From Verrucomicrobiota bacterium (lineage in GTDB: Bacteria > Verrucomicrobiota > Lentisphaeria > JABSQK01 > JAJFLO01), in assembly GCA_021772675.1 (NCBI GenBank), contig JAJFLO010000040.1, positions 5,083-69,082 of the forward strand: DNA of 64,000 nucleotides, written 5' to 3'. Each line of letters begins with the position of its first letter. Position 1 is the stretch's first letter. This document shows positions 9,557 to 36,370 of this stretch, one piece after another. Under the pieces are notes generated by a model. The model had not been told where the DNA came from. It searched no databases and saw nothing but the letters and a program-made list of their open reading frames with translations. The translations under genes and the position numbers were made by a program.

Positions 9557-10435
9557 ATGAAGAAAAAACTATTGATTACCGGAGTAAGTGGATTTTTAGG
9601 CTGGAATTTAACTCAGCAAGCTTGTGAAAATTGGGATGTTTTCGGAATTGCATATTCTCATCCTGTTGACATTTCGAATGTTAATGTCAATAGAATAAAT
9701 CTTACCGAGTACGGTGCGTTAAAAGATTCTTTTTCTCAAATCAAACCGGATGCAGTCATTCATGCTGCTGCTATGACAGATCCCAATGAATGTCAGAACT
9801 ATCCATCATTGTCCCGAAAAATTAATGTTGATGTTTCAGTAAATATAGCTGGTCTATGTTCAGATTTGGGAATTCCATGCGTGTTCACATCAACCGATTT
9901 AGTATTTAATGGTTTGCATGCTCCATATCATGAAGATTCAGAAGTATCACCAGTCAGTTTATATGGCGAGCAAAAAGCGATAGCAGAGGAGGAAATGATA
10001 AACCGTTATCCGAATATGACAGTCTGTCGTATGCCATTGATGTTTGGAGATCCTGGTCCGGTGGCGACTAGTTTTATTCAACCTATGATCAATGACTTAA
10101 GCAAAGGGAAATCACTCAATTTATTTGTCGATGAAATCAGAACACCAGTCAGCGGGCATGCCGCAGCGAAAGGTCTTTTGTTGATGTTAGACTGTTTTAC
10201 TGGGCTCATACACTTAGGAGGTAATGAACGAATTTCACGTTATGATTTTGGCATGTTACTCTGTTCAGCGTTTGACCTGGATAAGGCCAGGCTCAATCCC
10301 TGTAAGCAATCGGATATGCAAATGGTCGCTCCTCGCCCACCGGATGTGTCACTAACCAGCGACAAGGCATTTGCCTTGGGGTATCAACCGCTTGCTTTGG
10401 CGGAGGAATTGGAAAAATTGTTTTTGAATGGATAA
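9557..10435 (+). CDS. SDR-family NAD(P)-dependent oxidoreductase, RmlD (dTDP-4-dehydrorhamnose reductase)-like
   Basis: Rossmann motif ITGVSGFLG at the N-terminus, catalytic YxxxK as YGEQK, and a length of 292 aa typical of the RmlD-like subfamily. Confidence 0.75.
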   Translation: MKKKLLITGVSGFLGWNLTQQACENWDVFGIAYSHPVDISNVNVNRINLTEYGALKDSFSQIKPDAVIHAAAMTDPNECQNYPSLSRKINVDVSVNIAGLCSDLGIPCVFTSTDLVFNGLHAPYHEDSEVSPVSLYGEQKAIAEEEMINRYPNMTVCRMPLMFGDPGPVATSFIQPMINDLSKGKSLNLFVDEIRTPVSGHAAAKGLLLMLDCFTGLIHLGGNERISRYDFGMLLCSAFDLDKARLNPCKQSDMQMVAPRPPDVSLTSDKAFALGYQPLALAEELEKLFLNG

Positions 10436-10504
10436 GTTCTATTTTCGACAATTTTGAATTTTATAGCATTATTAGCTCTTAACGTTTATTGAAAAGGATG
10501 GAGT

Positions 10505-11626
10505 ATGAGCGATCAGAAGATCTCACGAAAAAGTTATTTGTCACAAAATCTGGGCGACTATCCGGAATTAGCCTCGGTATTCGGAAATGATTATCAAAAG
10601 GTTGACGATTTAAGGTATGGTACTAACCCCCACCAGACGGCGGCCTACTACAAACCCGTTGGAGTGTCGACGCCCATTGGCGATTTAGAAATATTGAAAA
10701 CAGGTAAAAGTGGTTTATCTCAGACCAATTTGGAAGATGTATCTTATTCATTGAACATTTGTAAAAACTTTGATCGCCCAGCCTGTGCATGTATGAAGCA
10801 CGTTAACCCGAGTGGGGCCGCCGTTGCTGTCGAATCCTGTTCAGTGAAAGACGTTTATATCAAAGCAAGAGATTGTGATCCAAGGGCCGCATTTGGCTGT
10901 GTTGCAGGATTCAATGTTGAAGTTGATGAGGAAACCGCTGTTGAAATCATGTCGAGTTTTGTTGAATGCGTTGTTGCACCTTCAGTTACCGCTGCGGCAT
11001 TGACCGTATTTAATGATCATGAGCGATTTAAACTCAATCGGCATATTAGAATCATCAAGTGTGGTGACCTGACGTTGTTACCTAAGACAGTTATAGATTC
11101 AAAAGAGGTTATTCGGACGATTAAGGTGCTTGCTGACGGTTCACTGATTATTGCTGATCCATTATTGTCGCATATGGGGTCTGCTGCCGATGTAAAAAAG
11201 GCTTCAGCGGAAAACAAAGCACTGGGTCATATCGAGTCAACCGTTAGTACATCTGAACAGCAGTTGGAGGATTTATTAACGGCATGGTTTATAAACATGA
11301 ACGTTCGTTCAAATGGTGTCGTCATTGTCAAAAATGGTGTTGCTATCGCCGTGGGGACTGGTGAACAGGATCGGGTCGGCGCTGTCGAACAGGCCGTATG
11401 GAAGTATGAAAATAAATATGAAGGCAGGGAGATTATCACTGATGCGGTCATGGCCAGCGATGGATTTTTCCCGTTTTATGATGCTGTTGAAACAGCGGCA
11501 AAGGCGGGTGTCACCGCGATAATATCTCCGGCAGGGTCTGTGAAAGATGCTGATGTAATCAAACGCGCTAACGAAATCGGGGTCGCTATGTTTCACGCCC
11601 CTGAGCGTATTTTTTCCCACCATTAA
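10505..11626 (+). CDS. AICAR formyltransferase-like protein (PurH C-terminal domain only)
   Basis: LRYGTNPHQ motif near the N-terminus and MASDGFFPF...ISPAGSVKD...ERIFSHH at the C-terminus match the PurH AICARFT domain. No N-terminal MGS/IMP-cyclohydrolase domain is present (373 aa). Confidence 0.8.
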   Translation: MSDQKISRKSYLSQNLGDYPELASVFGNDYQKVDDLRYGTNPHQTAAYYKPVGVSTPIGDLEILKTGKSGLSQTNLEDVSYSLNICKNFDRPACACMKHVNPSGAAVAVESCSVKDVYIKARDCDPRAAFGCVAGFNVEVDEETAVEIMSSFVECVVAPSVTAAALTVFNDHERFKLNRHIRIIKCGDLTLLPKTVIDSKEVIRTIKVLADGSLIIADPLLSHMGSAADVKKASAENKALGHIESTVSTSEQQLEDLLTAWFINMNVRSNGVVIVKNGVAIAVGTGEQDRVGAVEQAVWKYENKYEGREIITDAVMASDGFFPFYDAVETAAKAGVTAIISPAGSVKDADVIKRANEIGVAMFHAPERIFSHH

Positions 11627-11684
11627 ACTACAAGTATAAGTGTTGTATAAAGACGATCATAAAAATTATTTGCACGTATTAAAT

Positions 11685-11776
11685 ATACCGACAGCCATCA
11701 GGTTTTCGACAGGTTTCTGTAAAATTGTTGCCTGAAATGAATAACGACTGTCGAAAAACCTACTGCTTGCAGTATA
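11685..11776. repeat. family B structured repeat
   Basis: Near-identical to 1913-2004 and to the reverse complement of 33967-34058. Confidence 0.6.
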
Positions 11777-11908
11777 TATGTGAATTAAACGTAATCTGTA
11801 GATCCACCGAGAGAAAAAGACTTAAACGATATCGCAGAGCTGAAACGAATAAAAAATCAGAAATCATGAATCCTCCCACAAAAAAGCACAGTCGATCAGA
11901 TATTATTA

Positions 11909-12310
11909 ACTCACATTTTAGGAGGTTTCATTTTTGATTTGTTAAAGTAACTCGGCCATTCCTGGCTGAGATGCCTTGTGATTTGCGCAGTCAGGGAGCA
12001 ATTATGGGTGAACGTTTCTCTGGCATTAAATTTGATAAAATCACATAACAATTCGTATAATTCTGGGCCTCCTGGGGTAATGCAATCTATATGTCGAAGC
12101 GCTTGTTGGAGTTCACTGCTTCAGCTGTGGCTTTTCACTTAGCTATGCACAACTGAAGTTGTGAACTCCAACAGACATATTGCCATGTCAGAGCGCTTCT
12201 CAGAGTTCACCCATAATTGCTGGCAGTCAGGAATGACTGCGTTACTCAGTTTTGATTGCAAGTTAACCATATTTGAATAACAAATTAAAAATGAAACCCA
12301 AAATGTGAGT
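11909..12310. repeat. family A composite MITE carrying a nested family C element (11998-12220)
   Basis: Same outer inverted repeats and REP arms as 7614-7776. The REPIN loop is interrupted by a 223-bp element with termini GCAATTATGGGTGAA / TTCACCCATAATTGC, flanked on both sides by GCAGTCAGG. Confidence 0.65.
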
Positions 12311-12509
12311 ATTAAGAAACATTTCTCAATGTTCTGAGGAATCTTTTGATGGGCACACAGAATTTCAGAATCTCTCAGCAAAAGAAAAATTGATGTGGTT
12401 GTCAAACACTACTTATTTCGTATATAAAACTGCGAAACATAATCCAAAAATTGACTGAAATTCATTCTTTAATAAAGTTTAGTTTGAATAAGGGTGTTAT
12501 CTATTCAAG

Positions 12510-13112
12510 TTAAAACCGATCCGTAATTACTACTTCATCCAGAGGTAATTGACCCGGTTTTTCCCAAGCATCTTTCGTTCCTTTACCAATTGCCACAAAC
12601 ATAGCGATGACGTGATCATCTGGTAAATTGATCAGTTTACCCACCGCATCAAAATCAAATCCGTCCATAGGGCAGGAGTCATATCCCATGGCTTTTGCCG
12701 CCAGCATCAGTGTCTGAGCAACGATGCCGCATGATCGCATCGCTTCATCACGTTGAACCTGGTCTTTACCCCGATAATATTGATCAATAGCCGGAATCAT
12801 AAATTCCTGTACTTCTTTTGGTGCAGTCCGCCAATAACGCTTTGGTTCCTTTTTCCATGAATTCAAATCCGCACAGAGAATGATGAACAGTGATGCATCT
12901 GTAACCTGCGCCTGATCCCATGAAACACTGCGAATATCCTCACGTAGTTTTTTGTCTTTTGGAATTACAAACCGCCAGTTTTGAATATTAAACGCTGTGG
13001 GTGATAGCAGTGCCAGAGACAAAAGTTTTTCTTGTTCCTCATCCGTCATTATATGATTCGGATCGTAATGTTTAACTGCTCGTCGTTGCTCGATTGCTTC
13101 AATTGTATTCAT
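12510..13112 (-). CDS. nitroreductase family protein
   Basis: MNTIEAIEQRRAVKHY...LSPTAFNIQNWRF is a typical NAD(P)H nitroreductase N-terminus. The start was chosen at the ATG behind AAGGAAAAATC. The ORF track starts 30 nt upstream at 13142. Confidence 0.85.
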   Translation of the reverse strand: MNTIEAIEQRRAVKHYDPNHIMTDEEQEKLLSLALLSPTAFNIQNWRFVIPKDKKLREDIRSVSWDQAQVTDASLFIILCADLNSWKKEPKRYWRTAPKEVQEFMIPAIDQYYRGKDQVQRDEAMRSCGIVAQTLMLAAKAMGYDSCPMDGFDFDAVGKLINLPDDHVIAMFVAIGKGTKDAWEKPGQLPLDEVVITDRF

Positions 13113-13134
13113 GATTTTTCCTTTTTTAAGTGGC

Positions 13135-13740
13135 GCGGACATTCCTGTCTGCGTATTTTAATTTTTTTTTCTATAATGCCCTAATTTTCTCAGCCAGGAA
13201 TGACCGAGTTACTTAGTGGTGCGTACATTCCTTTCTGCGTATTTTTTAATTTTTTCTGCTATAGAGCCTTAATTTTCTCAGCCAGGAATGACCGAGTTAT
13301 TTAGTAGCGCGTACATTCCTTTCTGCGTATTTTTTAATTTTTTTTCTATAGAGCCCTAATTTTCTCAGTCAGGAATGACCGAGTTACTTAGTAGCGCGTA
13401 CATTCCTTTCTGCGTATTTTTTAATTTTTCTTGCTATAGAGCCCTAATTTTCTCAGCCAGGAATGACCGAGTTACTTAGTAGCGCAGACATTCCTTTCTG
13501 CGTATTTTTTAATTTTTCCTGCTATAGAGCCCTAATTTTCTCAGTTAGGAATGACCGAGTTACTTAGTAGCGCGTACATTCCTTTCTGCGTATTTTTTAA
13601 TTTTTTCTGCTATAGAGCCCTAATTTTCTCAGCCAGGAATGACCGAGTTACTTAGTAGCGCGTACATTCCTTTCTGCGTATTTTTTAATTTTTTCTGCTA
13701 TAGAGCCTTAATTTTCTCAGCCAGGAATGACCGAGTTACC
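13135..13740. repeat. tandem array of 7 REP-containing units, period 87-88 bp
   Basis: CTCAG(C/T)CAGGAATGACCGAGTTA recurs at 13189, 13277, 13364, 13452, 13540, 13628 and 13716. The DNA between recurrences is also conserved, so there are no unique spacers. Confidence 0.85.
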
Positions 13741-14340
13741 TTCCCTTAACCATCGCCAGTCATCGGGGTTCTTTACCAATCCCGCCTTAACCGGATTATT
13801 CCGAATATAACGTTTTACACTTTCTGTTTTATCTGCACTTCTACACCAATGATCGAAGTTTTCAGGCATCCAAAATTGACCTTTACGATTCAGTATTTTA
13901 TTTGCTTCTCTTGCAGTAAAACCCTTCATAATACCGATGCTTCTCTCAAGTGATTTAGTCGCTAATTCACTATCAACTAACAAAATGTGAACATGATTAG
14001 GCATAATGACTGCCGCAGGTATACGCCAGTGACATTCCGTTTCCAACCAGTCAAAAGATTCCAATACTATCTGAGCAATTTCCGGTATTCTTAAATATGT
14101 TGGAGAATTTTTTGCACTATCCAGAATTGTTTCTACTGTTTTGAACCTTTTTCGTTGAAATATAAGTATTTCTTCCTGATTGGGATCACTGTCAAGAAAA
14201 TTTTGGTAATCCCGTTTTAATCTGTTTACGATTGATTCGGGTAGTGACCCTTTAAGTCTAAACGTCACGAAATAAGGTTTGCTTTTGACATGCCAATGTG
14301 GCAGATTCCGTCTTCGAAATGATGTTGTGTTTGGTGTCAT
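13717..14340 (-). CDS. REP-associated tyrosine transposase (RAYT; IS200/IS605-like Y1 transposase family)
   Basis: RRNLPHWHV..YFVTFRL near the N-terminus and the HUH motif MPNHVHILLV. The gene is flanked on both sides by REP units, and its last 7 codons (GNSVIPG) and stop lie inside a REP copy. Confidence 0.8.
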   Translation of the reverse strand: MTPNTTSFRRRNLPHWHVKSKPYFVTFRLKGSLPESIVNRLKRDYQNFLDSDPNQEEILIFQRKRFKTVETILDSAKNSPTYLRIPEIAQIVLESFDWLETECHWRIPAAVIMPNHVHILLVDSELATKSLERSIGIMKGFTAREANKILNRKGQFWMPENFDHWCRSADKTESVKRYIRNNPVKAGLVKNPDDWRWLREGNSVIPG

Positions 14341-14415
14341 AAGATTTTATTTAGTCGTGCGGGCAGTCCTGTCTGTGTAAAATTTTGTATGTTTGCTGTG
14401 CTGCCATGATTTCAT

Positions 14416-14530
14416 CTCAGCCAGGAATGACCGAGTTACTTAGTGGCGCGTACATTCTTGTCTGCGTATTTTTTTTAATTTTTCCTGCTATAATGCCCTA
14501 ATTTTCTCAGCCAGGAATGACTGAGTTACC
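14416..14530. repeat. two further REP units (period 90 bp) on the other side of the RAYT gene
   Basis: CTCAGCCAGGAATGAC(C/T)GAGTTAC at 14416 and 14506, in the same orientation as the 13135-13740 array. Confidence 0.75.
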
Positions 14531-14597
14531 CAAAATAATTTTTCCGCGCTTCGCGCAAAGAATTAAGGGTAAAAAACTAAAAGAATAAAGGGTAAAA

Positions 14598-17500
14598 CTA
14601 AACGTCTCGCAAAACAACCCGACAACCGTAGCTGTCCCACCGGCCGCCCGGGGCGTCGTCGATGCGGGCAGAGCAGGAGCAGGAGTCTGGATCGCGGTAC
14701 CAGGCGCCGCCCCGCAAAACACGGAACCTACCATCATCAGGACCTTCGGGGTCTTTCTTTGTTGAGTCCTTATAATAATCACTTTTATACCAGTCCCTGC
14801 ACCACTCCCAGACATTACCGGCTAGATCATAAATTCCCTCCGGTGTTTGTCCAGAGGGGTAACTGCCCACCGCTGATGGTTTGCCCAAATTAGATTTAGA
14901 GTAGTTCGCATATTTTTCTGAAATATCATCATTTCTCCACGGGTAAAGCGCATCGGAACGGCCGCGAGCCGCATATTCCCATTCAGCCTCTGTCGGCAGT
15001 TGGACGATCGTTTTTTGCGGTAGGTCTGATTCGCTTTGCAGGTGCCCAGTCAGCCAACTGCAGAAGGCTTCAGCTTCATACCATGAAACTCCAATAACAG
15101 GTTGATTAGGACTACTAAATTCTTCGTTGTCCCAATATTCAGGTTGGACCCATTTATTTGATTGACGCTGCTTCCAGCCTGCTTCGCTCCACCATTTTCT
15201 GTCATCATATCCTTTGGTATCGATAAACATTTTATATTGGCCGTTGGTAATCGGGTACCGGCTCATTTTAAATGGAGTTAATTCAACATCATGTTTAGCC
15301 TTTTCTCTTCCCATTGTAAAGCAGCCACCCGGAAGGTCAACCCACATTTCAATATCAAAATCACAGACTCCGGAGCGTTGATCGCCTGACCAGCCAAGAA
15401 TCAAACCAGCGTCAACGCGCTCATGTGCAGCGAGTTTCTCTTCACTCAGTAATGTTGTCAAGCGGCTGTTGAGCCGTGTCAAAAACTGAGGACCGCCTCC
15501 CTGTTTATCATTCTCAATCGGTCCCCGCTTGATGATGCGTGCAAAGTGTCCCGCCCACAAAACACCGCGCCAGTCATCTTCACGTTTCGGCTCGGGAATG
15601 CCGGGGCACAGGCTGTACGTTAAATCCAATGCCGGGTTTTCATTGCCGTCATTAAAGAGCAGTTCTTCCATTCCGAGTTCTACGCTAAGACGCCAGTATT
15701 CACCTTCCGCGAGTAATTCTTTGACCGTACGATTAAAACTTCGTGTTCGCTTTGCCAGATAGCAACCGGCAAAATACTCCTGGAATGTCCGGTGGGGAAA
15801 GGCATAAACACGCTCGACATCCTGACCACGACCGCTCAATAACCCGGAGGTCGTATCGATATAATCCAGCAGTTTCATTGCTGCTTTTTTTGAGTCGGTA
15901 ACAACACCGGATAAATTTTTTGTAAAACTGCTCATTGCCATTGCCCAGGGAATATCCGGCATTTGCTCTCCATCGCGACCGGCTTTTTGTGCCAGATAGC
16001 CCAGTTCCCATAATGCAAAGAGCATCCGTGTCTCATCCGATAATCCGACATCGTCAAATAATGAAACCTTTTGACCTATTCTAACTTCCTGCCATCGTTT
16101 CATCATCAGCATTGCCGCCTGGTCATAAAGTTTCACTCGTTGACGCGGCAGTTCGACATTGGTCGTATGAACACCGGCCAGGGTGGTCAGTAATAAGGGA
16201 TTACTGACCATATCCTCTGGTAGTCTGCCAACAGCCTGTTGCAGATTATCTGTTTTTGTCTGTGCCCAATCTGCGGGTTTGCCAAGTCGGTGCAGCGCCT
16301 GATACCAGTACGTGATAAAATTATTGATCTGTTTGTTGCTGAATGGGGCCAGGGTGATCGTTTGATACGTTGCTATGACGGTATCCTTAACATAAGAAAG
16401 TATACGGCATGTCACAATTATTCGATTACCCTTGGAGCCGACGGCGAGAATTCCCAATACCTCACGTAACAGGAATTGGTCGTCCTTTGGCACTTCATCT
16501 AAACCATCGAACACCAGCAGGCATCGGTCATCTTCCAGCAGACGAACGAGTTCACTGCTGAAACCGGATAGGCCATCAGCGTCTAATTTTTTCTGAAGAT
16601 GCTTTTTAATGATGCGCATAAACTGGCATAAACGCTGTTCCTGAGTTGATTTTATATATTGCTGCGAATTCTCTTCCTGTAGTGTTACCAGTAATTCTCG
16701 CAGGACGACGCGGATTGGGAAATAATGGCGATGGGGCCAGTCTTTTAATGATACAGATTCGGGGTTAAGTTGACGTTCAGCCAATTGCCAGAGAAGGTGA
16801 TTGATAAATGAGGTTTTGCCGGATCCCGGATCACCCAGAATAACCAGCAGCGGTTCATTCGCTGCCGCTTCTAACGCTGTGAGTGGTCGGACTTTGTCAT
16901 CTCCGAAATGAAAACGATCCTCGTTTACCTTGGCAGGCTTACCTTGTTTATCAACGAATGTCGTCGTATTTAATCCGATATAAATCTGGTCCAGAGTAAG
17001 GCGGAGATTCGCCTGTGGGTCGCCGCTTTTTGCTATATCAGCCAGAGGTAGAAGATTGCACACTGTCGATAAATTCTTAAAATAACGTTGGCGCAAAACC
17101 TCGATCGGGACCGAAGGCTCTTGTGGTTCTGTTGGTATCAGAGTTTCCGATGATGCTTCAGGAATATAATCTCCCTGAATATAACCGATGTGATTATGGC
17201 CGTGTTTGTCCTCGATCTTCAGGCGGTTCCATTTCAGCTCCGTTAAATGAGAAAAATCCGTTGACTGCTTTAATTCATCATCAAGTGTGTGGCGAAAAAG
17301 CATGGTTGTAAAGAGCGCGGACGGCTCTCCGGATGCAGTCTGGAATTTTTTGAATTCCCCTTCGCTCATCAACCGTTCGGCATCGGCCATCACCGAACCG
17401 TAGTATTGATCACCCACCAGTTCCACATTACCGTAAGCCAATACCAGGCGCAGTGACAGTGGCAGATCGCCGCCTTTTATCCCTTCATTGTATTCGACCA

Positions 17501-17780
17501 GGTCATGACGTAGTTTCTGTGTATACTCCAGCGCCACATCCGTTGAGATTCCCTTTAAGAAAATATAATATCCGTCTCCTGTTCCATGACGTTCAAAAAG
17601 TTGCGAAAACGGCATTATCGGGCTGATAAATTTTCCGGCCTGATCCATTGATTCCCCGAGTTGTTTCAGGATAATTTTACGGTGAACGTCGTCCTTGTAG
17701 AGACTAGTAAAGCCGACGATATCGACCAGCAGAATGGGAAACATTTTATTAGTAGTCATTGATTTGGTGGTGGCTGACAT
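14598..17780 (-). CDS. DGR target protein 1: cyclase-homology-like N-domain, NACHT NTPase, FGE-type C-type-lectin domain with C-terminal VR
   Basis: 1060 aa. The N-terminus carries FPILLVDIVGFTS, GTGDGYYIFL and GSVMADAERL. NACHT Walker A is LGDPGSGKTSF and Walker B is LLVFDGLDEV. The C-terminus carries FGE-sulfatase-type motifs: [42 protein letters not shown]. The last 116 nt match the TR. Confidence 0.9.
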   Translation of the reverse strand: MSATTKSMTTNKMFPILLVDIVGFTSLYKDDVHRKIILKQLGESMDQAGKFISPIMPFSQLFERHGTGDGYYIFLKGISTDVALEYTQKLRHDLVEYNEGIKGGDLPLSLRLVLAYGNVELVGDQYYGSVMADAERLMSEGEFKKFQTASGEPSALFTTMLFRHTLDDELKQSTDFSHLTELKWNRLKIEDKHGHNHIGYIQGDYIPEASSETLIPTEPQEPSVPIEVLRQRYFKNLSTVCNLLPLADIAKSGDPQANLRLTLDQIYIGLNTTTFVDKQGKPAKVNEDRFHFGDDKVRPLTALEAAANEPLLVILGDPGSGKTSFINHLLWQLAERQLNPESVSLKDWPHRHYFPIRVVLRELLVTLQEENSQQYIKSTQEQRLCQFMRIIKKHLQKKLDADGLSGFSSELVRLLEDDRCLLVFDGLDEVPKDDQFLLREVLGILAVGSKGNRIIVTCRILSYVKDTVIATYQTITLAPFSNKQINNFITYWYQALHRLGKPADWAQTKTDNLQQAVGRLPEDMVSNPLLLTTLAGVHTTNVELPRQRVKLYDQAAMLMMKRWQEVRIGQKVSLFDDVGLSDETRMLFALWELGYLAQKAGRDGEQMPDIPWAMAMSSFTKNLSGVVTDSKKAAMKLLDYIDTTSGLLSGRGQDVERVYAFPHRTFQEYFAGCYLAKRTRSFNRTVKELLAEGEYWRLSVELGMEELLFNDGNENPALDLTYSLCPGIPEPKREDDWRGVLWAGHFARIIKRGPIENDKQGGGPQFLTRLNSRLTTLLSEEKLAAHERVDAGLILGWSGDQRSGVCDFDIEMWVDLPGGCFTMGREKAKHDVELTPFKMSRYPITNGQYKMFIDTKGYDDRKWWSEAGWKQRQSNKWVQPEYWDNEEFSSPNQPVIGVSWYEAEAFCSWLTGHLQSESDLPQKTIVQLPTEAEWEYAARGRSDALYPWRNDDISEKYANYSKSNLGKPSAVGSYPSGQTPEGIYDLAGNVWEWCRDWYKSDYYKDSTKKDPEGPDDGRFRVLRGGAWYRDPDSCSCSARIDDAPGGRWDSYGCRVVLRDV
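14607..14722 (-). other. DGR variable region VR1
   Basis: 116-nt alignment to TR 18897-19012. By hand count, 19 of the 20 differences fall on TR coding-strand adenines. Confidence 0.9.
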
Positions 17781-17850
17781 TATTTAGTATCTATTCTCCA
17801 GGGAAATATTTAACGTTCAACCTTTCTGTTAAGAGAACGCATATTTTTTC

Positions 17851-18341
17851 GCAATTATGGGTGAAATGCATTTACCTGATTAATTCATCCGGTTTCTATT
17901 GCAAGCGCATATCTCACTTCATCTAAGCGAGTTATGAAGAACCAAAATACTGGAAATAGTTTCCACCACGGCGGATTTTCAACACTATTCCTTCGCCTTT
18001 GGAACCTCCATAACTCATTGATCTGAACGAAGCTAAGCACTCTCATAACGAAACCGTATGAACTAATCAGGTTAAGTACACTATGAATTTATTTTGAGGT
18101 TGAATTGCCATTATTTTGGAGTTCAAGCTTTAGCTTGCTTATTCAAGTCCTTCAAAAAACAAATAAAACAAGCTAAAGGTTGCCACTCCATGTTATTTCG
18201 TTGCTGTCCTCCGGACAGCCTGTCTCGCCCATATTGCAGGCTCGGCTAAACTCCAAAATAATGGCATCCATGACAAACAATACGAATTATTAATGCAACT
18301 TTGTCGAATCTAATGCTTTAGAATTATTCACCCATAATTGC
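17851..18341. repeat. family C inverted-repeat element with further nested palindromic elements
   Basis: Termini are GCAATTATGGGTGAA (17851-17865) and TTCACCCATAATTGC (18327-18341). Inner inverted-repeat pairs are TACCTGATTAATTCAT/ATGAACTAATCAGGTTA and CCATTATTTTGGAGTT/AACTCCAAAATAATGG. Confidence 0.5.
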
Positions 18342-18720
18342 TGTGTGTTTTGAATGAAAAAAAGTTACCGGACCTGAATCCGTTCTAAATCCGTTTTTGG
18401 CGATAATATACCGATTGCTATCAGGTTTTCGACAGGTTTCTGAAAAATCGCCAACTGAAAGATTCATGGCGCGGCCATTCCTGTCTGTGTAATTTTTAAG
18501 ATTTGACTTGCAGACACGCGTTATCTCCCTCAGTCAGGAATGACCGAGTTACTGCAAGATATGTATTAATCCTTTTTTAATTTTTTAACAAGCGGTGATA
18601 CATATTCCTTAATTTGCCATTGTTCAAGAAATGCTTCAATTGTAATAGAAAGTTTATGCATAATGCAGATTAGGGCTGCCATTTTTCTAACACGTTAAAA
18701 AATATTAAATTTAAGTTTTC

Positions 18721-18778
18721 AAAAAAAGTCCCGGCACGGACGTTCGAACCATACAGGCCTACCAGCCTCTGCCGGGAC
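18721..18778 (-). terminator. putative intrinsic terminator/structured 3' end of the DGR transcript
   Basis: On the minus strand, GTCCCGGCA ...(33 nt containing the palindrome GTTCGAAC)... TGCCGGGAC is followed by TTTTTTT. The loop is unusually long for a simple terminator. Confidence 0.45.
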
Positions 18779-18843
18779 GGTGTTTTATTTGGCCCGGTCG
18801 TAATGACCGAACACAGGAACAAACTCAGACGTTTCTGATATGC

Positions 18844-18867
18844 CCGGCAAATTCGTAAATTTGCCGG
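18844..18867 (-). other. perfect 10-bp stem, 4-nt loop hairpin about 30 nt downstream of the TR
   Basis: CCGGCAAATT-CGTA-AATTTGCCGG, read directly. Confidence 0.6.
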
Positions 18868-18896
18868 CTCTAATCGGTATAGCCAAATGAATCGTA

Positions 18897-19012
18897 TCGC
18901 AAAACAACTCGAAAACCGTTGTTGTTCCATCGGTTGTTCGGGTTGTTGTTGATGCGGGCAGAGCAGGAGCAGTTGTCTGGATTGTTGTTCCAGGCGCCGC
19001 CCCGCAAAACAC
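18897..19012 (-). other. DGR template region (TR)
   Basis: Begins 5 nt after the RT stop. The minus strand reads in target frame as [38 protein letters not shown], with 12 Asn codons (11 AAC, 1 AAT). It is homologous to the 3' ends of three genes. Confidence 0.9.
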
Positions 19013-19016
19013 ATTA

Positions 19017-20084
19017 CTAGTAGCTTGTCCCCTTAGTAAGTCGAACCCGACCAAGAACCCGGGTTCGCAGCCGGTAACTGCTGCCCCAACGAACATGACC
19101 AACCCAACTTTGAATGGATTGATGGATTCGATCTAGGGAAATCTCATTATTGTTATATTGACAACATAGTTTTTGTAAATGGCGTTGGTACCGACGGGAT
19201 TTCTGTTTTAATGGAATTCTGTGTGTCGGCCAATTACGAAATCCAAGAAACTGACACCCTTCCCTAACACGGAGAACCTGGCATTTTTTCGGGTGAATTT
19301 TCAACCGAAAAGATGCCAAATAGTGTTTGATTTTACTACAAATCTCCCACAACTGCTCTTTACTATGGCCGAATACTGCAAAATCATCCATATAACGCAA
19401 ATACGGAGGCTGGTGCAGTTGCTCTTTTATGAAATGGTCCAGTGGGTTAAGATAGACATTCGCGAATAATTGGCTGGTTAGATTTCCTATAGGTAGGCCT
19501 CGCCTGCGCATATAGGGTGTAAAAAGGTCATCACCTGGGAAATAATGTTCCATCTCCTCCTGAGGATTACTGTTACTTATGATTTTCTCGATCAGTTCCA
19601 GTGTTCGCTGACATCCGATTTTTCGCCTGATTCGCTGAAGCAGAATGTCGTGGTCTATTGACGGGAAGAATTTTTGGATATCACATTGTAACACCCAGGG
19701 AAATTGGCAGCTGTAATCCTGAAATTTCAGCAGTGCTTTATGAGTTCCTTTTCCGGACTGGCAGGCATAGGATGTCGTAATAAATGTTCGATCAAAAATG
19801 GGTTCAATGATTTGGCAGATTGCATGGTGTACCACCCGATCACGATAAGGCGCAGCGCTGATTAAACGCTCTTTCGGTTCAAATATCTGAAAGCTGCGAT
19901 AATTTCCAGGCTGAAAATATCCTTCCGTTAATTCTCGCTGGAGTGTTAAGAGTTCATTTTCGAGATGATATTCAAAACGCGCCGTTTCGGTACGAAAGCG
20001 TTTACCTCTGCGTGCAGTTCGGGAAGCGCGCAGGAGATTTTCGAAACATGTTATTTTCTGGAAAAGATTTTTTGCCGTTTTCAT
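19017..20084 (-). CDS. DGR reverse transcriptase
   Basis: 355 aa. Motifs are [39 protein letters not shown] (the DGR-typical I/LGxxxSQ) and the catalytic YMDDFAVF. No group II intron maturase or endonuclease extension is present. An avd-like gene and the TR are adjacent. Confidence 0.92.
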
Positions 20085-20434
20085 GGTTTACGTTGTTGTT
20101 TCAACCAGGCGCCCACCTCTGTGCCGATGTCATTGACAAGCTGTGCTGCATGGCCGTAACGTTTTGTGCTCAGACAACGCAGGTCTTTCGCCAGTCGCAG
20201 CGAAAACCGAAGCTGCTCAATCAGTAAATTGACTTTTTGCAAACTTGTTTGTTTATTTCGGCTAAATTTTGCTTCAATAAGCATCGTTAAAACATCACTG
20301 GCATTTGTTTCAATGCGATCGCCAAGGGTAAATTTTCGGGATCGTGGAAATTTATCTAGCATGGGGATTAACCAAAGAAGAAAATCATAGGTTTTGGTGA
20401 TTACGGACAATTCTTTTGGACACGGCATTATCAT
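20081..20434 (-). CDS. avd: Avd-like accessory protein (four-helix-bundle, 23S rRNA intervening-sequence protein family)
   Basis: 117 aa. [28 protein letters not shown] is typical of this family. The protein is basic, and it overlaps the RT start by 4 nt (ATGA). Confidence 0.85.
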
Positions 20435-20517
20435 ATCCCATTATTTTCATTAATTTTTTTTTCCGCGCTTCGCGCAAAGAATTAAGGGTAAAAAGAGTAA
20501 AAGAAAAAAGGGTAAAA

Positions 20518-23500
20518 CTAAACGTCTCGCAAAACAACTCGAAAACCGCCGAGGCTGATCCATCGGCCGCCCGGGTAGTAGTCGATGCGGGCAGAGCAGG
20601 AGCAGTAGTCTGGAGCGCTGTACCAGGCGCCGCCCCGCAAAACACGATATTTACCACGATCAGGACCATTTGGATCTTTCTTTTCTGAATTCTTGTAATA
20701 ATCTTCATTATACCAATCCCGGCACCACTCCCGGACATTGCCGACAAGATCGAAAACCCCCTCCGGTGTTTGGCCAGACGGATAACTGCCAACCGCTGAT
20801 GGTTTGCCGATATTCGATTTAGAGTAATTCGCATATTCTTCTGAAATTTTGTCATTTCTCCATGGATAAAGCGCATTGGATTGACCACGGGCGGCGTATT
20901 CCCATTCAGCCTCGGTCGGCAGTCGTACAATCGTTTTTTTCGATAGACCTGATCCAGTATGCAGATGTCTTGTCAACCAGTTGCAAAAGGCTTCGGCTTC
21001 ATACCATGAAACACCGGTAACGGGTTGATTCGGAGCGTTTGCTTCTTCATTGGTCCAATGTCGGGGTTCGTCCCATTCATTTGATTTACACCGCTTCCAG
21101 CCCTCTTTGCTCCATAATGTGTCGTCATTATATCCGCTTGCATCGATAAACATTTTGTATTGCCCGTTGCTAATCGGGTACCGGCTCATTCCAAACCGGG
21201 TTAACTCAACCTCATGACTGGCCTTTTCTCTTCCCATTGTAAAGCGGCCACCCGAAAGGTCAACCCACATTTCAGGATTAAAATCGCATACTCCTGGCCG
21301 TTGATCGCCTAGCCAACCCAGAATCAGGCCGGCATCAACGCGTTCACGGAATGCAAGTTTACCATGTGTGACCAATGCTGTCAGATGTTTATTTAACCGA
21401 CCTAAAAATTTTGGTCCGTTGCCTTCTTCATCCTTCTTTATCGAGCCTGCGCCAATGATGTGCGCTAGATTTCCAGCCCAGAAAATACCGCGCCAGTCTT
21501 CTTCTGATTCAGGTTCTCGGTCCTCTGGACATAAAGAATACGTCAACCCAAGGGCGGGGCGTTCATTTCCGTCATTAAAGAGTAGCTCTTCCATGCCAAG
21601 CTCAATGCATAATCGCCAATAATCTCCCTGTAAGAGTAATTCTTTGACCTTTTGATTAAAATTGAGTGTTCGTTTTGCCAGGTAGCAGCCTGCGAAATAC
21701 TCCTGAAATGTTCGATGAGGAAAGGCGTAGACCCTGTCAGTTTCTCCACCACGGCCATGCAGTAATCCTGATGTTGTATCGAAATAATTCAGTAATTTTA
21801 CAGCAGCTTCTCTGGGTTGCAGGACGATCTCTTCCAGGTTTTTTGTAAATATTTCGACTGCCGTGGCCCAGGGAATGTCAGAAATTTTTTCAGAATCCTT
21901 CCCCGCTTCATGGGCCACATAGCCAAGTTCCCATAACGGATAGAGCATTCGCGTTTCGTCCCTTAATCCAATGTCATCAAACAATGACATCTTCTGGCCG
22001 ATCCTGACTTCCTGCCAACGTTTCATCATCAGCATTGCAGCTTGATTGTACAGCGTCACTCGCTGCCGCGGCAGTTGCAGATTCGTTGCATGGACACTGG
22101 CCAATGTCGTGAGCAGCAGAGGATTTCTAACCATATCAACAGGAAGTTTGCCGACAGCCTGCTTCAGGTCATCAGTTTTTTCAGCTGACCAATCAATGGA
22201 TTTTCCAAGTCGATGCAGGGCGAGATACCAGTGATCAATGAAGTCATTTATTTGCTCCCTGCTGAATGGAGCGAGTGTGATATTACGGTAGGTTGGCAGC
22301 ACGGTATCCTTCACATAAGAAAGAACACGGCAAGTTACTATGATACGATTGCGCCGACAGCCGCCGGCAATGATTTCCAATGCTTTACAGAGAAGCAGTC
22401 GATCGTCCTTTGGCACTTCGTCAAGACCGTCAAATATCAACAGACACTGATCATCCTCCAAAAGGCGAAACAGTTCATGGCTAAAATCGGTCAGGTTATC
22501 CGAGTCTAATTTTTTCTGCAAATGCTTTTTTATGATGCGCATAAACTCACGCAGCCGCTGTTCTGGAGCACACCCAACATATTGATCCGCATTTTCTTCG
22601 TGCAGTGTTAGTAATAATTCCCGCAAGATGACGCGAATAGGAAAATAATGCCTATGGGACCAGCCTTTTAACGATTCAGAGTCCGAGTTGAGTTGATATT
22701 CTGCCAATTGCCATAAAAGATGATTGATAAATGAGGTTTTACCGGATCCCGGATCACCCAGCATAACAAGTAGTGGTTCGTTGGTCGTTGCCTCTAAAGC
22801 AGTGAGTGGCCGTGTTTCGTTTTCCCCAAAATGTAAATGATCATCTTTTTTATCGATAGTTTTTCCCTGTTTGTCAATGAAAGTCGTTGTATTTAACCCG
22901 ATATAAATTTTGTCCAGTGTCAGGCGAAGATCAGATTGTGGATCGCCACTTTTAGCGATATCCGCCAGAGGTAAAAGATTACAAACTATTGATAATTTTT
23001 CGAGATAACGTCTACGTAACACGCCCACCGGGATTGAAGGCGATTCTGGTTCAGTTGCAGTCGGAGTTTCATAGGGCGCTTCCGGCACATAATCACCCTG
23101 AATGTAACCGATGTGTTCATAACCGTGTTTGTCTTCGACCGGGAGTCGGCTCCACGTTAAACCGGTTAAATGAGAAAAATCATTGTTCTCGGTTAAATCA
23201 TCCTCAAGTTTGTGGTAAAACAGCATTGTCACAAATAATGCGGATCGGACTTTACAGCTTGACTGGAATTTTTTGAAATTTTTATCATCGATCAGCCGAT
23301 TTGCATCGGCCATTACCGAACTGTAGTATTGATCGCCAATAAGTTCTACATTACCATAAGCTAACACCAGACGCAGTGATAGGGGCAGGTCTTTACCTTT
23401 ACTACTTCCGTTGTATAATTCCAGTTTTTGGCGAAGTTGCTGAGTATATTCCATGGCAACCAGTGATGAAACGGCGTTAAATAAAATATAATACCCATCC

Positions 23501-23709
23501 CCTGTTGTTTCACGCGGGAACAGTTGTGAAAATTTGATTACCGGACTAATAAAAGTCCCGGCATCATCTATCAATTCCTGAAATTGCCTCATGACTGCCT
23601 TACTGTGAGTGTCATCATGGTAGCGTGATTTAAAGCCGACGATATCAATCAGCAGTATTGGAAACATTTCATTTTCTTTGATATTCATCCTACATTCTCC
23701 ATTTTTCAA
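20518..23709 (-). CDS. DGR target protein 2 (cyclase-like, NACHT, FGE/CLec with VR)
   Basis: 1063 aa, collinear with target 1 at high identity by eye. Motifs are FPILLIDIVGFKS, TTGDGYYILF, LGDPGSGKTSF and LLIFDGLDEV. Lies immediately upstream of avd on the same strand. Confidence 0.9.
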   Translation of the reverse strand: MKNGECRMNIKENEMFPILLIDIVGFKSRYHDDTHSKAVMRQFQELIDDAGTFISPVIKFSQLFPRETTGDGYYILFNAVSSLVAMEYTQQLRQKLELYNGSSKGKDLPLSLRLVLAYGNVELIGDQYYSSVMADANRLIDDKNFKKFQSSCKVRSALFVTMLFYHKLEDDLTENNDFSHLTGLTWSRLPVEDKHGYEHIGYIQGDYVPEAPYETPTATEPESPSIPVGVLRRRYLEKLSIVCNLLPLADIAKSGDPQSDLRLTLDKIYIGLNTTTFIDKQGKTIDKKDDHLHFGENETRPLTALEATTNEPLLVMLGDPGSGKTSFINHLLWQLAEYQLNSDSESLKGWSHRHYFPIRVILRELLLTLHEENADQYVGCAPEQRLREFMRIIKKHLQKKLDSDNLTDFSHELFRLLEDDQCLLIFDGLDEVPKDDRLLLCKALEIIAGGCRRNRIIVTCRVLSYVKDTVLPTYRNITLAPFSREQINDFIDHWYLALHRLGKSIDWSAEKTDDLKQAVGKLPVDMVRNPLLLTTLASVHATNLQLPRQRVTLYNQAAMLMMKRWQEVRIGQKMSLFDDIGLRDETRMLYPLWELGYVAHEAGKDSEKISDIPWATAVEIFTKNLEEIVLQPREAAVKLLNYFDTTSGLLHGRGGETDRVYAFPHRTFQEYFAGCYLAKRTLNFNQKVKELLLQGDYWRLCIELGMEELLFNDGNERPALGLTYSLCPEDREPESEEDWRGIFWAGNLAHIIGAGSIKKDEEGNGPKFLGRLNKHLTALVTHGKLAFRERVDAGLILGWLGDQRPGVCDFNPEMWVDLSGGRFTMGREKASHEVELTRFGMSRYPISNGQYKMFIDASGYNDDTLWSKEGWKRCKSNEWDEPRHWTNEEANAPNQPVTGVSWYEAEAFCNWLTRHLHTGSGLSKKTIVRLPTEAEWEYAARGQSNALYPWRNDKISEEYANYSKSNIGKPSAVGSYPSGQTPEGVFDLVGNVREWCRDWYNEDYYKNSEKKDPNGPDRGKYRVLRGGAWYSAPDYCSCSARIDYYPGGRWISLGGFRVVLRDV
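20527..20645 (-). other. DGR variable region VR2
   Basis: 119 nt. There are 17 substitutions relative to the TR, all at TR adenines, plus one extra codon inside the 3'-most AAC run. Confidence 0.9.
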
Positions 23710-23736: not shown

Positions 23737-26700
23737 TTAGATCAATTGCATCACAACACGAAAGCCAATGGTGTTCCAACTAGTTTTGGCTTTCGTTTGA
23801 TTGCGGGCAGTAACCTGGCAGCTGCCGGACCCATCTATCCAGGACCCGCCGCGCAGCGCTTTAAGATGATCTGGCTCACTACTCTGTACGATTTGATTAA
23901 TATCAGGTATAACGCTTAAATCCGGTTGCTCCCACCCGTTCAGGCACAATTCCCATATATTTCCCGCCATGTCCATGATGCCCTCCGGAGTCGCTCCGTC
24001 AGGATATAAGCCTGCCACCGTTGTGTGGCCCATCATTTCGTCACAATTTGCCCGATTTTTATTCGGTGTCTCATTGCCCCACGGATATCTCCTGCCACCC
24101 CGGCCTGCCACCCATTCCCACTCCATTTCCAGTGGCAGGCGAAACTGTCGCTGGCTCCTATTCTTATCGACGTCTTTTGCCTGCATTGTCAGCCATTGAC
24201 AATACTGCATCGCACTGTACCAGGAAATACCAATAACAGGTTGGTTATCTTCATTGAATTTTCGGTTCTCAAAATCCTTTGAATTATGGATTTGAACCTC
24301 TGCATCTGTAAAGGAATTCAGAAACGTCCGGTACCGCAGATTAGTGATGGGATATTTCGCTATATAGAGGTCGGAAATCGACACCTCTTTTACGGTGGCA
24401 GAAAAGCGAAATTGTCCGCCCGGTACAAAGATATATTCGGCATTATTTTCAATTGAATTAAAAAAGTGACTTTCTTTTGGCGCAGTCTTCGTATCTTGAG
24501 GACACTCTACACCCCATTTTGTAAGCAGTTCAGATGCTAGATTTCTCAACGATTTTTCCCCGTCATCTATTAACGACATGACCGCCGTAATGACACGTTC
24601 AGACGCATGGTGGCGCAGGCATTGCAGGGAATTATATCGCTTTCGCCAGGAATACCGTCTATCAGTCAACACCATGATAATGGGATCGATGGGTAACCGT
24701 ACAGATTCCCGAACCATTTGCAGCAGCAGTGGTGATGTCGCACCATCGTTGCCATCATGGGGGAGAAATAATTCAAGAAATTGCGGAAAAATAGCCGGTT
24801 CGGTCAGGCCGGCTGAAAAGAGAATGGTTTCCCGCCACCAATCGTCATGGAAGTTTGCCACCAATAGATCTGCCCGACCGCGATTGGCAATTTCGACAGC
24901 GGCAAGATACTCGCGAAATGATTTGTGTTGAAACATGTAGGTGTCATTTGATTTAACAAGGACCCCGGCGCGGTCACAGATATAGTTCAGAAATTGTGCC
25001 GATGAGATTTCGGGGTTGATTTTTTTCAACATGCCGGTGATATATGTCTCAATTTTTTTACCGGGCAATTCATCTGCATGTAGCTCGTCCTGCATCCAGA
25101 ACGATAAATTTTGGAGTATCTTTTTGGTTTCTGTTGTCGTCAGGAGCGGTTTAATCCGTTTTCTCCGATCGCGGTGATCGAGGAGATAGTTGATACTGCG
25201 GTTGTATAATAACATCCGGCCACCGGCAAGGCTGCCATGTTCCCGCCAGATAATCGCCATAATCTGTAGCAGCACCGGGATGCCGGCCATTTCCTTCAGC
25301 GAGCGGTTTCCATCCTCTGCCAGAAACGTGATAATATCATTGGCGTGAGTTGCGGACTCTTTCTTTAATGAGTCGCTGTTTTCTTCGTTGCTGCGTTCGG
25401 CAGGATCCAGCTCCGCTATGCTTACGGCATAAAACCAGTGAAGGAGGTATTCTTGTTGTTGATCGGAATTTAAATCGAGAACATTGGCACGGATGTGGGG
25501 CAATTTAAGGAAAATGCCTTCATGTTCATGATACCCGGTAAAGCGACAGGTGACGACAAAGACGGATTGATTATATACTGGAACGGCATGGTCAATCCAT
25601 CGGCAAATCTGCTTTCGCTTTTTCAGACTGCCGACTTCATCCAAACCATCAAGCAGCACCAGAATACCGGGTTCTTTCAACCAGTTTTTTAGTGTGCGTT
25701 TTGAAAAATTGAAATTTCTAATTTTAGCCCATTTCACCAGTGATTCGATGAAGGGCTGGTCCGGGTTAATTTCCCGGAGCGGCACCAGTAATGGGATAAG
25801 CGGTTTTTTGAGAGAAAGTTGATTCTGCCCGGAATTGTCGATGGAACAGATTTCTAAATAGCGCATCAGTGTGGTTTTTCCTGAACCCGGATCGCCGAGG
25901 ATAAGTATCGATTTAGAGTCCGCCATGGCTTGTGTCAAAAGTTGCCGGGGCGACAGTAAACGCTCAGTCTCTTCCTTCGGTTCTTTAATTTCAGGCAGAC
26001 TGTGACCGTATTCTGTAAGTCGAAGGGAAACAAATGCATCGAAAAGGTTTACAGAGATGTTCGCTGAAGACAGGAAACCAAATAAGTTAATGCGACCATG
26101 TTCAATGTGTATCGCTGCCAGATAGCGCTGTAGTGTCTTATCGTCATCAATTCCTGTTTCAGACGTGATCCTCTCGTCATTTACGTAGGCTATGTCATCC
26201 TGGTTATAACTTTCCTGAGACTGTAACTGTGACCAATTCAGTTTGGTGAGTTTTGATGTCAGTGGAGATTTTGTCAATTCACTCTCCAGCAAGTTATGAA
26301 AAATTGCGGTTGAAAACAAGATCGAATGCCCGTCACTGTATTCTTGATAGGATTTTAATTTTTCATCACGAACCAGGTGTTGTGCATCCGTGATCAGGGA
26401 GTCAGCATACTGGTTAATATCCAGGTCTGTCCGCTGCCAGGCCAGAATTAGACATAGTCTGAGTGGCGTGTTTACTCCATTGTGATGTGTGTTGTATTGG
26501 TACAGATTACTGCACAGGGCTTTAACAAAGACGAATGCGGTATCTATCGGCTGATTTTCCAAAAATAAATAATACCCGTTTATGGAATTTGTTTGCTTAA
26601 AGAACCGGGAAAACGGTGTATACGGTGAAATCATCTCTCCGGTGAAATCGATCAGGCTCTGGAGAACTTTTATGACGTGCATGCGTTCGAATTCGGTTTT

Positions 26701-34285: not shown

Positions 34286-34361
34286 GCCAAAGTAGCTCAG
34301 TTGGTAGAGCAATTCACTCGTAATGAATAGGTCAGCGGTTCAAATCCGCTCTTTGGCTCCA
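34286..34361 (+). tRNA. tRNA-Thr (anticodon CGU), CCA encoded
   Basis: The cloverleaf was folded by hand. Acceptor is GCCAAAG/CTTTGGC, the D-arm reads GCTCAGTTGGTAGAGC, the anticodon stem is ATTCA/TGAAT with loop CTCGTAA, and the T-arm is GCGGTTCAAATCCGC. Ends with discriminator T and CCA. Confidence 0.9.
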
Positions 34362-35842: not shown

Positions 35843-36370
35843 ATGACAGGACAACGTATTGGCTATATCAGGGTTAGTACCTTTGACCAGAACACAGATC
35901 GTCAATTGGAAGGTATACAAGTTGATCGTATTTTTACGGATAAAGGTATTCACCGGGAACAACTGGAAATATTAATAACTTTTGTTCGAAGTGGTGACAC
36001 CGTTGTCGTACACAGCATGGATCGGTTAGCACGTAATCTCGACGATTTGCGTCGCATTGTTCAATTACTCACGAGAGATGGGATTCGCATCGAGTTTATC
36101 AAGGAAAATCTGTCTTTTACAGGCGAAGATTCGCCAATGGCAAACTTAATGTTGTCTGTAATGGGTGAATTCGCTCGAAAAACTGGATTGGACTGGTCAG
36201 TCGTTTCCCGCCACTTAAAGTTACTAAACCTGCCCTTTCCTATTTTAGAATATCTAGAAAAGAATCAAACGCCTGAAGTATTAAAACAATGTCACCTAAA
36301 ATATTTATGCAGCCTTACAAAATTATCGGAGAAAGAATGTATTATAAGATTTTCTACAGATATCGGATAA
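35843..36370 (+). pseudogene. serine recombinase (resolvase/invertase) fragment
   Basis: The N-terminus IGYIRVSTFDQNTDRQL...GDTVVVHSMDRLARNLDDL...FTGEDSPMANLMLSVMGEFA is canonical. The conserved DK-x-SGK block is shortened (DKGIHREQL). After GEFA the sequence departs from the expected EFER..IRERQ helix into unrelated text. No C-terminal HTH is present. Confidence 0.6.

Follow-up and report, generated by a model that had tools for sequence, protein, structure and literature searches.

What is the function of the N-terminal domains of receptor-like proteins whose opposite ends are rewritten by a retroelement? This question is raised by a 64,000-nucleotide stretch of a Verrucomicrobiota bacterium genome (assembly GCA_021772675.1, contig JAJFLO010000040.1, positions 5,083 to 69,082; hereafter the window, in whose own numbering all positions are given), which carries a diversity-generating retroelement (DGR) and three large target proteins resembling NOD-like receptors (NLRs). 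These are: (i) target 1 (1060 aa; 14598-17780), (ii) target 2 (1063 aa; 20518-23709) and (iii) target 3 (1050 aa as read; 30713-33865), all delimited by open reading frames (ORFs) and Pfam matches and all encoded on the minus strand, as are the DGR and the other cluster genes described below. The original prediction, made from the sequence letters, had assigned one architecture to the three proteins, and the ORFs, the Pfam matches and the alignment to the template repeat (TR) of the DGR bear this out: an N-terminal domain (N-domain) is followed by a NACHT NTPase and by an FGE-sulfatase/C-type-lectin (CLec) fold domain with a terminal variable repeat (VR). The main finding of this study is that the N-terminal ~190 residues of targets 1-3 are, as judged from sequence profiles and a predicted structure, a divergent class III nucleotidyl-cyclase homology domain (CHD).

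In target 1 the cyclase-like N-domain comprises residues ~13-203 (17172-17744), with counterparts at ~23095-23667 in target 2 and ~33260-33832 in target 3; its length of about 190 aa corrects the ~170 aa initially proposed. The motifs FPILLVDIVGFTS, GTGDGYYIF and LSLRLVLAYGNVELVGDQYYGSVMADAERL, found in target 1, are common to targets 2 and 3, so that all of the motifs named in advance were present. The N-domains of targets 1-3 share 64-70% identity (66-70% for target 3 vs targets 1 and 2). As word-index homologue searches gave only 2 and 5 relatives, an exhaustive hidden Markov model (HMM) search of 1.84 billion representative proteins, with the window's four copies and two relatives as the query, was needed to define the family. 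This search yielded 120 clusters, 95 of which were found with E<=1e-10.

Three independent lines place this family among the class III cyclases. The first is a sequence profile: when built from 42 family members and compared with PDB sequences, it matched 3mr7 (E=9e-11) and Ma1120 of M. avium (E=1e-4), and class III cyclases accounted for 24 of the 27 PDB matches listed. The second is profile-profile comparison with hhalign, in which the family scored 97.3-98.7% against the Pfam-verified cyclase domain of protein P0105, 97.9% against P0122 and 97.9% against a protein named 'class 3 adenylate cyclase' by JGI. The third is the predicted structure. The AlphaFold2 model of the N-domain, based on the 42-sequence alignment (pLDDT 94.6, pTM 0.90), shows the beta-alpha-beta-beta-alpha-beta palm-like fold expected of a CHD, and its top 50 Foldseek matches in the PDB were class III adenylyl/guanylyl cyclases only (probability 1.00), the best being Ma1120 (E to 3.6e-8, target-normalised TM-score to 0.81, root-mean-square deviation 2.9 A). 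An earlier model, based on a 6-sequence alignment (pLDDT 69.7), also pointed to class III cyclases.

Two other identities were considered and rejected. A GGDEF diguanylate cyclase received no Pfam match, was represented in the PDB profile search by DosC only (E=0.83) and did not occur in the structural top 50. A lipase was the sole match of a single-sequence phmmer search of the N-domain against PDB sequences, and was regarded as a chance match of no relevance.

The residues expected at a class III active site were mapped, in target 1 numbering, from the HMMER alignments to 3mr7 and Ma1120. The first and the second metal Asp correspond to D20 and D69 (the latter within TGDGYY), the phosphate-binding Arg to R111, which aligns to the R.G.h.G motif, and the transition-state Arg to R136, which aligns to the Arg of the VN.A.R motif. 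The position of the substrate-specifying Lys is occupied by H65 (Glu in targets 2 and 3), the second specifying position (Asp in adenylyl cyclases) by Q125 in targets 1-3, and the position of the transition-state Asn by A132 in targets 1-3. Target 2 is identical to target 1 at the catalytic positions apart from E at 65. The suggested collinearity with the class III blocks (metal Asp, second metal Asp and transition-state Arg) was recovered by the profile, the AlphaFold2 model and Foldseek, and the observation that the Asn position does not hold Asn was correct. Conservation was counted in 59 full-length family representatives (sharing at most 50% identity and drawn from at least seven phyla-level groups): D20 is kept in 58, G68-D69-G70 in 58-59, R111 in 53, G117 in 57, R136 in 56 and K192 in 56 of them.

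The sole representative without both metal Asp is a protein of the window itself, i.e. a 1748-aa paralogue (23737-28983; identified by Pfam and TR comparison), in which the substitutions D20N, G68I, D69N, R111C, G117Q, R136H and K192S have accumulated, while fold residues such as F24, Y71-Y72, F162 and W184 are retained. Because this degenerate copy lost its catalytic residues all together, they appear to be dispensable for folding, and their joint loss in a non-diversified paralogue, with conservation elsewhere, is as one would expect of residues that targets 1-3 retain for catalysis. This contrast is the best available argument for catalytic maintenance in the three targets, whose N-domains are apparently intact cyclases. 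An unrelated fold or lost catalytic residues, named beforehand as the findings that would speak against a cyclase, were seen in none of targets 1-3.

The DGR genes are placed between targets 1 and 2, and encode a reverse transcriptase (RT; 355 aa; 19017-20084; Pfam RVT_1 E=4.9e-29, PADLOC RT E=2e-55) and the accessory protein bAvd (117 aa; 20081-20434; Pfam bAvd E=9.9e-20). The TR (~128 nt; ~18885-19012), recognised by repeat comparison and translation, is rich in AAC codons, and such an abundance of Asn codons is usual for DGR templates. The final ~125 nt of targets 1, 2 and 3 align to the TR and constitute VR1 (14598-14722, the 3' end of target 1, with 81% identity to the TR), VR2 (20518-~20645) and VR3 (~30779-30906), respectively. 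TR adenines account for 21 of the 26 mismatches in VR1, and the ratios of mismatches at TR adenines to those at other bases are 21:5 (VR1), 19:4 (VR2) and 20:2 (VR3). Each target therefore has what is expected of a DGR target, namely a 3' VR with adenine-specific mismatches, RVT_1 and bAvd genes nearby, and a VR located in an FGE/CLec fold. One DGR rewrites the ligand-binding tip of the C-terminal FGE/CLec domain in three cytoplasmic NACHT proteins. The VR-like end of the 1748-aa paralogue differs from the TR at 14 adenines and 27 other bases and, because these mismatches are spread over all four bases, this paralogue is not a current DGR target.

A GC-rich palindrome, CCGCGCTTCGCGC, is part of a 3' flank of ~97 nt that the three targets also have in common (71-86% identity; direct-repeat family D11). 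This flank is found at 14532-14628 for target 1, with further copies at 20452-20548 and 30715-30811. A separate observation concerns the repeats themselves: an insertion, CAGCCTC, occurs in both targets 2 and 3, and the present TR cannot template it.

Between the two ends of each target lies the NTPase module. In target 1, the NACHT core (residues 312-492; 16305-16847; Pfam 37.2 bits at a cut-off of 26.7) has a Walker A motif GDPGSGKT at residue 316 and a Walker B motif LLVFDGLDE at residue 421, and the FGE-sulfatase/CLec-fold domain (PF03781; 198.9 bits, E=1.5e-58) covers residues 812-1056 (14613-15347). NACHT (PF05729) was detected in all four paralogues (37.2, 32.8, 47.3 and 60.4 bits), as were the motifs G(D/E)PGSGKT and hhhh(h)DGLDE, and no transmembrane segments were predicted in any of them. 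The layout of targets 2 and 3 is that of target 1. The 1748-aa gene encodes, in order, an ORC/AAA_16 ATPase, a MarR-type winged helix-turn-helix, TPR, the degenerate cyclase-like domain (~26158-26790), NACHT and FGE, and its start is abutted by a gene for a 403-aa AAA_22-type ATPase (28984-30195; ORF and Pfam), with which it is probably co-transcribed.

The NACHT-containing middle regions are of two types: targets 1 and 2 share 71% identity here, target 3 and the 1748-aa gene 65%, and identity between the types is only 22-25%. Since the N-domains are similar while the NACHT regions split in this way, the cyclase head appears to have been shuffled among NACHT scaffolds. Shuffled heads, a frameshifted target 3 and a degenerate fourth copy together form a birth-and-death pattern typical of conflict genes.

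Does the rest of the family support an effector role for this domain? Among 50 longer family members, domain content comprised AAA_16 (21), NACHT (20), NB-ARC (5) and FGE-sulfatase (4), with TPR in most. The N-domain is thus almost always N-terminal to an NTPase of the signal transduction ATPases with numerous domains (STAND) class, i.e. NACHT, NB-ARC or AAA_16, with TPR or FGE sensors. In P0006 the cyclase-like domain is followed by TIR, NB-ARC and TPR, and in P0069 it is combined with TCAD9, a protein kinase domain and FGE. A search of GTDB species genomes with the 6-sequence alignment as the query gave 20 related loci, distributed among Planctomycetota, Chloroflexi, Thermodesulfobacteriota, Acidobacteriota, Myxococcota, Cloacimonadota and, above all, Magnetococcales. 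In two Magnetococcales assemblies (L024, positions 10001-19648, from the metagenome-assembled genome contig PEAK01000005.1, and L025) there is a further DGR locus, to which an RVT_1 gene and a TR belong. Its targets are P0056 (cyclase-like domain, NACHT and FGE) and a sister protein (TIR of the TIR_2 type, NACHT and FGE), which differ only in their N-terminal head. Within a 117-nt core of these repeats, 12/24 and 10/24 template adenines differ, vs 9/93 and 6/93 of the other bases. The architecture of cyclase-like domain, NACHT and FGE thus recurs far from the lineage of the window, and at the N-terminal output position the cyclase-like domain is interchangeable with TIR, a known nucleotide-consuming effector. 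The occupation of the same position by either domain in sister targets supports an effector role.

In addition, domains distantly related to the N-domain (E~1e-4 to 1e-5) lie C-terminal to a cyclic nucleotide monophosphate (cNMP)-binding domain in three proteins (P0108, P0110 and P0121) that have no Pfam cyclase match. These may represent a further cyclase-like group that lacks annotation, with the cyclic-nucleotide sensor built in.

How might such a receptor work? Class III cyclases are obligate dimers with active sites at the dimer interface, and in STAND/NLR proteins sensing licenses oligomerisation of the NTPase. By this logic, a ligand bound by the hypervariable lectin domain would release the NACHT module to oligomerise, the cyclase domains would meet as head-to-tail dimers and form active sites, and these dimers would turn nucleoside triphosphate (NTP) into a cyclic nucleotide. 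The base of the substrate is left unspecified in this model, since the His/Glu and Gln pair is non-canonical and the Asn is missing. The product would act on receptors whose genes lie at other places in the genome, or the effect would consist in the consumption of NTP. The biological role would most likely be the recognition of invaders such as phage, by analogy with the proposals made for other DGR-diversified STAND proteins. Because the N-domain is an apparently intact cyclase, it is plausible, from the motifs and the modelled fold, that a hypervariable ligand sensor drives cyclic-nucleotide synthesis. For the model as a whole, from hypervariable lectin sensing through NACHT oligomerisation to cyclic-nucleotide synthesis by the cyclase heads, we estimate a probability of roughly 0.55.

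Several observations weigh against this model. Firstly, the N-domain is missed by the Pfam Guanylate_cyc model and by the PADLOC models: hmmscan of the full proteins and isolated N-domains of all paralogues, up to E<=10, gave no match to Guanylate_cyc, GGDEF or DUF2652, and the PADLOC defence-protein library returned nothing for the N-domain. Of the three profiles suggested in the original prediction, NACHT and FGE-sulfatase were thus found and Guanylate_cyc was not, and the cyclase kinship was visible only by family profile and structure prediction. Secondly, the transition-state Asn is absent: family members mostly have Thr, Ile or Ala there, with a conserved acidic residue next in the chain. 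Both canonical specificity pairs (Lys/Asp and Glu/Cys) are replaced by a family consensus of His and Gln. Thirdly, K192, which the AlphaFold2 model places in a hairpin loop (191-195) flanked by strands 184-190 and 196-202, is a candidate for the phosphate-binding Lys of the beta7-beta8 loop by model topology only, and the C-terminal third of the N-domain, the segment holding K192, was unreliably aligned by hhalign. Fourthly, target 3 is frameshifted as sequenced, with a +1 insertion in the distal VR, so that its frame extends 33 codons beyond the normal end and the canonical GFRVVLRDV* end falls in another frame.

Finally, no downstream partner was found. A search for a cNMP-binding effector elsewhere in the genome had been proposed, and no cNMP-binding, CARF, SAVED or similar effector was present among the 27 further window ORFs of at least 117 aa scanned with Pfam (seven of them without a Pfam match; ORFs 46523-51937 and 53875-57657 were left out) or next to 22 related loci. 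When the window and 25 related loci were translated in all six frames and searched with a small, weak cNMP-binding HMM, no match was obtained either. An all-against-all comparison of neighbours in the 20 related loci revealed no conserved partner gene, which points to essentially single-gene systems.

These observations bear first on the possibility that the N-domain is a pseudo-enzyme, which makes no cyclic nucleotide but, as a module for nucleotide binding, dimerisation or adaptor contacts, recruits or regulates a separate effector once NACHT oligomerises. The missing Asn, the non-canonical specificity residues and the lack of a nearby cNMP receptor in the window and related loci are what such a module would lead one to expect, inactive cyclase domains are reported to be common in related conflict systems (PMC7159879), and the 1748-aa paralogue is a dead version of the domain that has been tolerated and retained. 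However, five catalytic residues are near-invariant in 59 diverse representatives, which is hard to explain for a pure scaffold, and the dead paralogue, having lost them together, indicates that folding does not need them. Moreover, Asn-less class III cyclases can be active, e.g. Rv1900c, which has His at this position (PMC4886424). A pseudo-enzyme is therefore considered unlikely.

Alternatively, the N-domain may be active with another output: a non-canonical cNMP such as cyclic CMP (cCMP) or cyclic UMP (cUMP), a linear or cyclic oligonucleotide, or toxic NTP depletion without any receptor. Both cCMP and cUMP are the cyclic nucleotides of Pycsar, and linear and cyclic oligonucleotides are made by related palm-fold enzymes. 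A His/Glu and Gln pair that fits neither the ATP nor the GTP type, the lack of the ribose-contacting Asn, the apparent single-gene organisation and the fusion of the domain in P0006 to TIR, another nucleotide-consuming effector, would all suit such an output. On the other hand, structure and sequence searches alike have class III cyclases that form 3',5'-cNMPs as their top matches throughout, with one marginal GGDEF match (that to DosC), and PADLOC recognised nothing in the N-domain, so that this alternative, too, is regarded as improbable.

It is similarly doubtful that the targets are non-immune, i.e. DGR-tuned receptors of environmental or self signals feeding an ordinary cAMP/cGMP network (a reading which overlaps mechanistically with the cyclase-effector model). 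In its favour, a cyclic nucleotide would be a second messenger of general use, Pfam scans of window ORFs and PADLOC showed no recognised defence genes flanking the locus, and Rv0386 and related cyclase-STAND proteins are regarded as signalling or regulatory (PMC4452763). Against it, the layout of effector, NACHT and hypervariable sensor and the TIR interchange fit the antigen-sensor/conflict class (PMC10907252, PMC7159879), and the paralogue expansion, domain shuffling and decay at the locus are typical of conflict genes.

The model of sensor-driven cyclic-nucleotide synthesis can also be carried further. The heads might constitute a new, distinct class III subclass (with the Asn lost and a His/Glu-Gln pair), serving as the built-in signal generator of an NLR that is reprogrammed by a retroelement, possibly with a non-canonical cNMP as the alarm and the dead 1748-aa paralogue as a regulatory or decoy partner. 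This extended version is offered tentatively, as a possibility that we would not favour at present; within it, the 1748-aa protein could be a decoy or a regulator of its active paralogues.

The surroundings of the cluster contain several mobile and repeated elements. An 88-bp unit is present in about seven tandem copies (most of them 93-94% identical) at 13068-13782, with single copies flanking target 1 at 14415-14529 and 18467-18552. An ORF for an IS200-like Y1 transposase (13717-14340) runs with its 3' end into this array, and the unit could be an element resembling repetitive extragenic palindromes and their RAYT transposases (REP/RAYT) or a miniature inverted-repeat transposable element (MITE). 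Just past target 3 lies a tRNA-Thr (CGT) gene (34286-34361, plus strand), then a truncated-looking resolvase (35843-36370, plus strand) and an ISL3 transposase (39996-41204, plus strand). The G+C content is 42-46% over ~14-32 kb vs 35-41% in most of the remaining window, and the DGR cluster may be located on an island integrated beside tRNA-Thr. The rest of the window includes genes for a ShlB/POTRA transporter (37705-39360), a DUF928 protein (58133-58924), a TPS-domain exoprotein (59323-61686) and a TPR-CHAT protein (61781-63943), and, amid the transporter and exoprotein genes, three giant ORFs of 1260-1804 aa (41199-46217, 46523-51937 and 53875-57657). Judged by gene content (CHAT-TPR, DUF928, TPS/ShlB), the window would have pointed to a filamentous cyanobacterium.

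At present, NLR-like proteins diversified by DGRs are the best candidates for a programmable repertoire of antigen receptors in bacteria. Assignment of one such head to an apparently intact cyclase gives a concrete output that can be assayed (cNMP or pyrophosphate), and therefore a simple read-out for ligands of the hypervariable lectin domains. It joins three fields (DGRs, bacterial NLRs and cyclic-nucleotide immune signalling). In addition, about 120 clusters that escape standard profiles are now defined as one family, previously without annotation. The locus also offers a natural pair for experiments, consisting of an apparently active and a dead version of the same domain.

The novelty of the finding is narrower than the original prediction implied. 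That DGR-diversified STAND proteins had been reported was rightly stated there, as STAND-CLec antigen sensors of this type are published, many of them with uncharacterised N-terminal extensions (Dore et al. 2024, PMC10907252). Fusions of cyclases with STAND NTPases, and with NACHT in particular, have been published as well; it is the triple combination that was not found described. In multicellular bacteria, cNMP cyclases are recognised as signalling or effector domains of conflict systems, sometimes in one protein with FGS (PMC7159879, PMC8195603). In the accessible part of the bacterial NACHT survey of Kibby et al., cNMP cyclases are listed among the N-terminal effectors, with entries 'ACYC+NACHT', 'ACYC+NACHT+ImmLRR' and, separately, 'NNH2+NACHT+FGE-sulfatase', and that part of the text has no ACYC+NACHT+FGS entry. 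The proteins Rv0386, Rv1358 and Rv2488c of M. tuberculosis consist of a CHD, AAA/NB-ARC and a LuxR helix-turn-helix (HTH) (PMC4452763), and substrate selection by the cyclase domain of Rv0386 was studied biochemically, according to the citation of Castro et al. 2005 in PMC4452763. The cyclase-STAND precedent of Rv0386 and the listing of cyclases as NACHT effectors were counted in favour of the cyclase-effector model.

Comparison with four known kinds of system defines the position of the targets more closely. With the DGR antigen sensors (Dore clade 5D; Kaur et al. 2020/2021) they share the RT, Avd and TR, two or more paralogous targets, a central NACHT/STAND module, a C-terminal FGE/CLec domain with the VR and an N-terminal output position; they differ in their N-terminus, for which a divergent class III cyclase fold is assigned here. 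With the cyclase-STAND fusions (Rv0386 group; ACYC+NACHT) they share an N-terminal CHD directly before the STAND NTPase. The sequences that the family matches best (3mr7 and P0105-type cyclase-TPR proteins) have a CHD of the same general kind as those fusions, and the motif GDVE.V.DQ..S....EA.R parallels GD..L..GD.FGDAVN.AAR. However, standard profiles do recognise the CHDs of the known fusions, in which the Asn is retained, whereas the present family is missed by Pfam, and in place of TPR, LRR or HTH it has a DGR-diversified lectin domain.

The likeness to Pycsar is by analogy only and consists in the use of a class III-type cyclase as an immune signal generator. Pycsar itself is a stand-alone cyclase paired with an effector, whereas here neither a PADLOC match nor an adjacent cNMP-binding effector gene was found, and the cyclase forms one protein with a NACHT and a sensor of its own. 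The fourth, DUF2652 (PMC4886424), is likewise a class III-like fold missed by standard annotation, with the metal Asp and the transition-state Arg retained and a hydrophobic residue in place of the Asn, but it forms single-domain proteins of ~250 aa and not STAND fusions, and its Pfam profile does not match the N-domain. In the literature searched, no description was found of the triple combination (cyclase head, NACHT and DGR-diversified lectin) or of the divergent cyclase family. The concept is an expected extension of published work, and the building blocks are each known; what is new is their combination, together with an unannotated divergent cyclase subfamily as the head of DGR-programmed NACHT receptors.

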